A stretch of 27,718 bases of DNA. Source: Candidatus Marinamargulisbacteria bacterium SCGC AAA071-K20. Its GTDB lineage: Bacteria; Margulisbacteria; Marinamargulisbacteria; GCA-2716485; AAA071-K20. Made by a program: the position numbers and the translations under genes. Each line of letters starts with the position of its first letter. Within the stretch, counting starts at the first letter, position 1. The DNA lies in contig QFBU01000016.1 of the NCBI GenBank assembly GCA_003265975.1, positions 1 through 27,718 of the forward strand. The letters run 5' to 3'. Positions 11,493-11,689 of this stretch are shown piece after piece. A model generated the notes under the pieces. The model saw nothing but the letters and a program-made list of their open reading frames with translations, made no database searches and had not been told where the DNA came from.

Positions 11493-11568
11493 GGGCGGTT
11501 AGCTCAGTTGGTAGAGCACCGGCCTTACAAGCCGTAGGTCACTGGTTCGACCCCAGTATCGCCCACCA
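11493..11568 (+). tRNA. tRNA-Val (anticodon TAC) with an encoded CCA
   Basis: It forms a cloverleaf: acceptor GGGCGGT/ATCGCCC, D-arm GCTC..GAGC, anticodon loop CTTACAA, T-arm ACTGG-TTCGACC-CCAGT, then CCA. It is near-identical in pattern to E. coli tRNA-Val(UAC). Confidence 0.9.
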
Positions 11569-11689
11569 CCAAAACCATCTAAACACTCCACAGACTCATA
11601 TAACCAAACGTTTAACTACATTAGTAGTCTTCACGTTCGCCTATTTGAGCCTGTGAAGCGTTTAGACGGTTTTGATGGTGGGCGCGCCC
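11560..11689. repeat. Long imperfect inverted repeat with ~40-nt arms and a ~45-nt spacer. The left arm includes the tRNA-Val 3' end.
   Basis: Left arm 11560-11600 reads CGCCCACCACCAAAACCATCTAAACACTCCACAGACTCA. The reverse complement of 11646-11689 reads GGCGCGCCCACCATCAAAACCGTCTAAACGCTTCACAGGCTCA. About 35 of 41 positions match. Confidence 0.7.

Follow-up and report, generated by a model that had tools for sequence, protein, structure and literature searches.

The question raised by this locus is what to make of a tRNA-Val gene whose 3′ end is at the same time the outer end of a long imperfect palindrome: a trace of mobile DNA, a structured RNA of the host, or an accident of replication or repair. 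The window, which here means the whole stretch of DNA analysed, is a contig of 27,718 bp from the single-cell genome of Candidatus Marinamargulisbacteria bacterium SCGC AAA071-K20. It represents core chromosome, with thyA, ftsZ, bioF/H-like genes, the genes for chorismate mutase and prephenate dehydrogenase, bioD, bioC, Band7/HflC, ubiA, ribF, truB, rbfA, infB and nusA. The BioC-like protein is a 100% match to DID80_03280, and a domain search of the ORFs across the 27.7-kb window returned no integrase, transposase or other recombinase. For the 594-aa ORF on the far side of the BioC-like gene, no Pfam domain was matched at 1e-3; the ORFs at the syntenic position in the loci L085, L087 and L089 contain PF00443 (ubiquitin C-terminal hydrolase), an unusual domain for a free-living bacterium.

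Architecture of the palindrome at tRNA-Val

The imperfect palindrome reported in the initial annotation as starting in the 3′ end of tRNA-Val is real, and its parts are compiled with the neighbouring features in Table 1. The earlier count of 35 matches in 41 positions holds for the outer 41 positions, but the arms extend a further 11 nt inward, such that 43/52 positions (83%) are complementary, with 21 nt between the arms. Likewise, the tRNA end does recur in inverted orientation (X′) as described, but X′ had been taken for the only copy, and the 7-nt direct repeat X2, which abuts it, had been missed. X′ and X2 together form the perfect 14-nt palindrome GTGGGCGCGCCCAC (11678–11691). The overall order is therefore X1, arm, tip, arm′, X′ and X2, in which the direct repeats CGCCCAC at 11560–11566 and 11685–11691 flank the insert and the tRNA stays intact. 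The insert itself is non-coding, about 116–125 bp in length, with no conserved ORF of at least 30 aa inside; a spurious ORF running through tRNA and hairpin, used as a protein query, matched only the hairpin-less tRNA-Val locus L103/L104.

Table 1. Positions of the tRNA-Val hairpin, its neighbourhood and the second instance at tRNA-Arg (window coordinates unless L091 is named).
Feature	Position	Strand	Remarks
594-aa ORF	8871–10655
BioC-like gene	10652–11419	−	divergent from tRNA-Val
BioC promoter-like site	11455 to 11426	−	divergent from the tRNA promoter-like site; consensus match
tRNA promoter-like site	11449–11478	+	TTGTAA, 18-nt spacer, TACAAT; basis is the consensus match only
tRNA-Val(TAC)	11493–11568	+	ARAGORN; Rfam tRNA, 69.8 bits; CCA encoded
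X1, last 9 nt of tRNA-Val	11560–11568	+	CGCCCACCA; outermost piece of the left arm
Left arm of the foldback	11560–11611		52 nt
Foldback tip	11612–11632		21 nt; own 5-bp mini-stem 11615–11619 / 11624–11628 in folds
Right arm	11633–11684		52 nt
X′, inverted copy of the tRNA end	11676–11684		TGGTGGGCG; last 9 nt of the right arm
X2, direct repeat of the tRNA end	11685–11691	+	CGCCCAC; 7 nt, abuts X′
T-rich tail	11692–11704	+	TTCTCAAATTTAT; after X2; 11/13 identical in L084
RhuM-family gene fragment	11821–11990	+	Pfam PF13310, E 9.9e-13
Second hairpin	12045–12100		just downstream of the Band7 stop; stem ATAATCAACCGT / ACGGTTGATTAT, 17-nt loop
Band7 gene	12131–13039	−	convergent with tRNA-Val
Second variable spot	13040–13713		between Band7 and the syntenic 351-aa gene
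TylF-type methyltransferase fragment	13101–13301		in the second variable spot; Pfam E 1.9e-9
351-aa gene	13714–14769		core gene, syntenic in relatives
Arms of the L091 hairpin	3633–3667 / 3710–3744		35 nt, 77% complementary, 42 nt between
tRNA-Arg(TCT) of L091	3734–3810	− (of the locus)	same layout, unrelated sequence

Folding of the region, as suggested early on, placed both strands far beyond their shuffles: RNA of the + strand reached −61.5 kcal/mol (z −11.3) and RNA of the − strand −93.6 kcal/mol (z −15.0), with 0/200 shuffles as good in either case. An inverted-repeat score anchored at the tRNA 3′ end was 29.5 for tRNA-Val and at most 8 in the 22 other tRNAs of the loci examined, the null from 400 random anchors having a maximum of 11.5, a mean of 6.0 and a standard deviation of 1.2. 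An inverted chimera generated by MDA was rejected as the source, since the arms are only 83% complementary and the same structure is found in the metagenome contig L084.

Two further observations concern the immediate surroundings. The tRNA end and its trailer read ACCACCA at 11565–11571, i.e., an encoded CCACCA; CCACCA is a tRNA degradation tag, and its occurrence at this tRNA end is probably a coincidence. Over 20 nt, the stem of the second hairpin is 85% identical (E 0.68) to the inner part of the stem in the large tRNA-Val hairpin (ATAACCAAACGT / ACGTTTGGTTAT), a likeness that could reflect chance or a small hairpin family.

Lineage-specific insertion and recurrence at tRNA-Arg

A 23-mer probe designed to fit both arms was searched in metagenomes (241 million records), viral contigs and a genome collection. 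The single matching record among the 241 million metagenome records was the orthologous locus, L084 (Ga0310344_10187377), a metagenome contig of 1,757 bp with the order Band7, spacer, hairpin, tRNA-Val; the viral contigs and the genome collection, the latter not including this single-cell genome, gave no match. Between window and L084, the identity of Band7 amounts to 86% for the protein and 76% for the DNA; at its 4-fold degenerate sites it is 32%, and composition by itself would give 33%, which means that neutral positions have reached saturation. The hairpin, on the other hand, is identical at 133/137 positions and tRNA-Val at 76/76, and the whole block 11493–11704 shows 6 differences in 212 nt. 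All three stem differences fall in the left arm (11574, 11577 and 11588) and one lies in the tip (11623), the right arm, X′, X2 and the motif TTCTCA being identical. Homology stops after the T-rich tail, and the DNA beyond is unalignable: the spacer of the window (11692–12130), without homology in L084, is home to the RhuM fragment, which lacks both ends, has a stop codon inside and covers only profile positions 14–56 of 252, and the L084 spacer contains an unrelated 94-codon ORF with no Pfam match. It had been pointed out in the initial annotation that unconserved arms, together with the same sequence and no island in relatives, would speak against a mobile origin; L084 keeps the arms and differs in the flank.

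The gene order of more distant relatives bears on the direction of change. In L085–L090, with the order Band7, tRNA-Val, BioC, a 240-nt gap and a Band7 that is 71% identical, there is no inverted repeat, and none is present in L103/L104, where the same tRNA stands in the order BioC, tRNA-Val, UbiA. Since these sister lineages have the same gene order (in L103/L104 at least BioC and tRNA-Val) and the same tRNA and do without the hairpin, the hairpin is an insertion specific to the lineage of the window and L084; within that lineage, no empty site was seen. The hairpin-less relatives have a TTCY motif 0–7 nt past the tRNA end. X2 with its tail bears a weak resemblance to these trailers, and the trailer after X1 is devoid of TTCY. 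The acceptor stem of tRNA-Val in the window and in L084 has a G6·U67 wobble (ATCGCCC; 11559, tRNA position 67), and the hairpin-less relatives have G6-C67 (ACCGCCC), the changed base lying just outside the duplicated segment.

Further loci were surveyed along the same lines. A genome scan anchored on BioC found only distant methyltransferases from outside the Margulisbacteria (L004–L083, which served as controls only), and the BioC homologues P0003 and P0004 were not syntenic. The Band7 relatives of L091 (L092–L094) and other Band7 clusters (L095–L102) had no tRNA at this place, or other contexts. The Logan contig L088 is GC-rich and unrelated from the 5′ end of tRNA-Val onward (1411–1560), and the tRNA is probably the joint of a chimeric assembly. 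The spot between Band7 and the 351-aa gene measures 74 nt in L085, and holds a 409-aa gene in the 108,698-bp contig of the closest relative (JGI 3300072015), which carries P0002 and P0008 and has a gap of 435 nt between Band7 and BioC.

A second instance of the layout was found in L091 (QFBT01000029.1, from the Marinamargulisbacteria single-cell genome SCGC AG-439-L15). Here the proximal arm begins with the end of tRNA-Arg, CGGGCGCAC, and the inverted copy is directly followed by 12 nt that repeat the tRNA end in direct orientation (CGGGCGCACCAT), forming a perfect 16-nt palindrome. The anchored score of 15, compared with a null maximum of 11.5, lies 7.5 standard deviations above the null mean, and both at tRNA-Val and at this tRNA-Arg the hairpin is the strongest inverted repeat of its locus. 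The arm sequence is unrelated to that of the tRNA-Val hairpin, and no second copy was detected within L091. In each case the inverted copy matches the local tRNA, which makes these structures unlike a generic element with fixed ends. The foldback layout thus occurs in 2/4 independent Marinamargulisbacteria lineage/tRNA combinations inspected, the evidence base being two independent elements at three loci. The DNA on the far side of the tRNA-Arg hairpin (L091 1197–3448) contains several DUF6973 paralogues and ORFs without assignment; it looks island-like, so this hairpin, too, would adjoin variable DNA.

Origin and strand bias of the foldback

The reading preferred here, tentatively and with slightly less than even confidence, is that of a small, single-copy foldback insertion, specific for tRNA ends, which regenerates the tRNA 3′ end. 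A foldback of ≈ 116–125 bp would have entered the 3′ end of tRNA-Val at about tRNA position 67/68. The X1 of the element itself, i.e., the last bases of the tRNA with CCA, would keep the tRNA gene intact, its far end would be the inverted copy X′, and the displaced original tRNA end would survive as X2 with its TTCY-type trailer, just outside the element. An independent event of the same kind would have taken place at tRNA-Arg in another Marinamargulisbacteria lineage. In its behavior this would be a miniature integrative or foldback element specific for tRNA ends, mobilised in trans or now immobile, rather than a proliferating MITE, and the stem mismatches that have accumulated would weaken the hairpin of the sense transcript and leave the antisense fully foldable. 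Such an account would explain why the tRNA end is duplicated, why the layout recurs at a different tRNA with a different sequence, and why the element is single-copy.

The near identity of the two tRNA-Val hairpins despite saturated synonymous sites is read here as recent lateral spread into the same target, with a recent arrival in both hosts, although the 97% identity could stem from strong functional constraint instead. For tycheposons, which integrate at tRNA genes, it has been described that each new insert takes the place next to the tRNA and pushes older remnants outward. A conserved hairpin between the tRNA and lineage-specific debris would be expected on this basis. The mobile-element scenario of the initial annotation is supported by the insertion relative to sister lineages and by the variable spot with its RhuM fragment, but not in its form of a 3.3-kb island.

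What counts against a foldback insertion is the lack of an enzyme in the window, of a copy at any other site, and of an empty site within the lineage. No second copy of the tRNA-Val arm exists in the 27.7-kb window, and no significant degenerate copy of the arm or the tRNA end was found in the downstream spacer. Viral contigs scanned with both hairpins, the tRNA end and the X′X2 junction gave no match, and BLAST against phage records matched the tRNA part alone; as far as the collections show, there is no sign of a phage origin. With no copy at another site, in viral contigs or in phage records, mobility is something we infer, as is the direction of the event with X2 as the ancestral end. Furthermore, a double-stranded circle of 125 bp is too small for a normal recombination intermediate, so that the insert would need an unusual one, probably a single-strand hairpin. 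A bolder version, which we regard as rather unlikely, is that Marinamargulisbacteria carry a class of foldback elements not described before, specific for tRNA ends and each fitted to one particular tRNA, which insert within the 3′ strand of the acceptor stem and duplicate it, whose transcript can fold as a tRNA with an intervening hairpin, and which move via an antisense single-strand hairpin. If true, it would give bacteria a counterpart of the intervening sequences known from tRNA genes.

The predicted folds are of interest in this context. The sense fold of tRNA, hairpin and X2 has the same MFE structure at 3/3 loci (window, L084 and L091), in which X2 is base-paired to the 5′ strand of the tRNA, the three arms (D, anticodon and T) form as usual, and the hairpin from X1 to X′ is inserted between the T arm and the 3′ strand of the acceptor stem. 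The cloverleaf is equally intact with X1, closure by X2 with the hairpin as an insert being the alternative; forcing the canonical, X1-closed acceptor stem costs 8.5–10.5 kcal/mol at the three loci and leaves X′/X2 as a small GC hairpin followed by UUCU. In terms of modelled structure, the layout amounts to a tRNA gene interrupted by a hairpin, with the interrupted strand supplied a second time.

The antisense strand folds better than the sense strand in L084 (−91.3 vs −67.5 kcal/mol) and L091 (−52.7 vs −36.6 kcal/mol) as well as in the window, and does so also as single-stranded DNA. At tRNA-Val, the stem of the antisense hairpin is 56 bp long and is disturbed only by G·U wobbles and two 1 × 1 loops. 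The transition mismatches of the two independent elements comprise 10 A/C and 0 G/U on the tRNA strand (p = 0.002 for 10:0); A/C on the tRNA strand is G·U on the antisense strand, which for this reason folds much better. Two readings are available: maintenance of the antisense form, as RNA or as single-stranded DNA, or a preference for substitutions that destabilise the sense hairpin. The latter is plausible because the sense hairpin competes with the acceptor stem of the tRNA. The transversion-type mismatches, seven in the two elements together with five in L091, also break the antisense stem and are in better agreement with sense weakening. On the other hand, 2/3 stem differences between window and L084 are G·U-to-Watson–Crick changes on the antisense strand; they fit the maintenance of an antisense form and, as the pattern of a conserved antisense structure, count against a foldback insertion.

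The alternative that survives best, though it is unlikely, is a structured RNA with a function in the host, in an antisense or a sense version. As an antisense structure, the hairpin would be an insulator or terminator against antisense transcription into the tRNA gene, or a substrate of RNase III, for which the superior antisense fold at all three loci, the 10:0 polarity and the structure-neutral nature of two of the three stem substitutions would speak; the seven transversion mismatches break the antisense stem as well, and the consensus scan revealed no promoter-like site for an antisense RNA. Furthermore, a separate promoter-like site, reported as lying downstream of the tRNA, is available to BioC. 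As a sense structure, it would be a 3′ trailer for processing or termination at the tRNA 3′ end, with X′/X2 and the T-rich tail as a small terminator-like hairpin, just as the canonical-tRNA fold leaves the X′/X2 GC hairpin and then UUCU. An oversized terminator or processing structure had in fact been proposed in the initial annotation; the consensus scan of 11300–12200 found no terminator-like site on either strand, and the remainder of that proposal is retained in this alternative. A plain intrinsic terminator was rejected, as there is no GC stem-loop with a T run, X′/X2 with TTCTCA being merely terminator-like. Conservation at the level of a tRNA where neutral sites are saturated, reaching as far as X2 and the T-rich tail, is in favor of a host RNA in either version; a simple structural role, however, predicts covariation and not 97% identity, and sister lineages with the same gene order do without the hairpin. 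At the gathering thresholds of Rfam 15 only the tRNA passes (the best other family, MIR9486, scores 42.8 bits vs 100), and permissive E-values add only generic, sub-threshold matches to miRNA hairpins, so no family supports such an RNA. Finally, an RNA role alone leaves unexplained why the X-X′-X layout recurs with unrelated sequence at tRNA-Arg.

A local accident of replication or repair, i.e., a fold-back template switch at the inverted repeat of the tip that is neither mobile nor functional, is improbable. It would account for an X′ that matches the local tRNA at both loci, as if copied from neighboring sequence, the 5-bp mini-inverted repeat in the tip could prime the fold-back, and perfect palindrome joints, such as the one between X′ and X2, are typical of hairpin-mediated joining. 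A vertically inherited duplicate without function should, however, be unalignable at saturated divergence instead of 97% identical, a simple fold-back gives no X2, for which a second switch to X would presumably have been needed with no complementary priming site, and the same layout is unlikely to arise twice by chance.

Highly improbable, in spite of the direct repeat of the tRNA end, the nearby RhuM fragment, the spacer that varies between window and L084, and the role of tRNA genes as integration hotspots that gather remnants, is the att-site scar or inversion footprint of a kilobase-scale integrase island at 11570–14890 with the RhuM fragment as its remnant, as the initial annotation had envisaged, because relatives have Band7 and the 351-aa gene, both of them core genes, in unchanged order, the only variable DNA in that interval (11692–12130 and 13040–13713) lies outside and not between the direct repeats, no further copy of the tRNA end follows downstream, the window has no integrase, and known att scars are direct repeats rather than 52-nt inverted arms.

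Comparison with known systems

The hairpin fits none of the families tested, and literature searches found no published description of a foldback layout at a tRNA end. A primer site resembling a PBS was rejected, as L091 does not keep the complement of CCA. For the tRNA-targeting integrative elements, such as the tycheposons of marine picocyanobacteria, flanking direct repeats of the tRNA end and a regenerated tRNA are hallmarks that are found both here and in L091; the insertion at the 3′ end of a tRNA, the supply of a replacement tRNA end, the partial tRNA copy as a direct repeat, the position of newer inserts next to the tRNA and the decayed foreign genes beyond are all shared. In contrast to these islands, the insert measures 116–125 bp instead of kilobases and contains no integrase gene, it is an imperfect palindrome over its whole length, it ends in the tRNA end in inverted orientation, with the direct repeat immediately next to it, and the direct repeat is just 7–12 nt long. 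An ordinary tRNA-integrated element is what the segment 52–3016 of L100 looks like, which carries a phage integrase at tRNA-Val(GAC) and is present in L100 alone when compared with the near-identical L099 (from an unrelated bacterium).

MITEs and other palindromic repeats include ERIC/IRU (about 127 bp), the Correia elements and the Rickettsia palindromic elements. The hairpin resembles them in being small and non-coding (125 bp, in a range of 100–150 bp) with inverted arms (52 nt) of nearly whole length, in its short flanking direct repeat, and in being tolerated in or near functional genes. Unlike them it is apparently present once per genome, the length of the direct repeat varies (7 nt at tRNA-Val vs 12 nt in L091) with the left copy itself inside the inverted repeat, and the inverted repeat contains the target, matched to a different tRNA each time; we know of no parent IS for a foldback at a tRNA end. 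A multi-copy MITE, raised in the initial annotation as a MITE family, is not supported: neither the window nor L091 contains another copy, and the 241 million metagenome records yielded the orthologous locus alone.

Integron attC sites are imperfect palindromes of 57–141 nt that share an architecture but not a sequence. The size of the palindrome, the better folding of one strand and the adjoining variable DNA are similar; on the other hand, there is no central bubble and no integron integrase, and the hairpin is anchored in a tRNA gene. An attC identity was rejected, since the foot, CGCCCACCA/TGGTGGGCG, is devoid of RYYYAAC/GTTRRRY boxes, the internal motifs GTCTAAAC/GTTTAGAC deviate from the consensus, and the antisense stem has no extrahelical bases.

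The intervening sequences of bacterial rRNA are removed by RNase III. As with these, a hairpin of ≈ 100–150 nt sits in the gene of a stable RNA with a patchy distribution among relatives, and judging from the predicted folds the host RNA would still work; the differences are the location in a tRNA and the duplicated flanking strand, such that an intact tRNA results without excision. In the attP of CTX-type phages, a folded single strand, the integrated layout is target, loop, inverted copy, (body) and target. Here, too, two inverted target-like sites ≈ 90 nt apart fold to a hairpin; however, the target is a tRNA end and not dif, no phage body lies between X′ and X2, and there is no mismatched central region.

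If mobile, the foldback would point to an insertion mechanism of miniature size, programmed by the tRNA, in a marine phylum that is streamlined and uncultured, and to a way to hide an insert in a tRNA gene without killing the gene; if a host RNA, it would be a hairpin attached to a tRNA, with an antisense or processing role and an unusual degree of conservation. The hairpin is a genuine, non-random feature that is conserved and recurs, and it may represent a type of small insertion at tRNA genes that has not been described. The 3′ ends of tRNA genes are classic landing pads of genomic islands, whose footprints are direct repeats of kilobase-sized elements with an integrase; the footprint here is instead a foldback of 110–125 bp with both an inverted and a direct copy of the tRNA end, and it is best filed as a variant of tRNA-targeted insertion.
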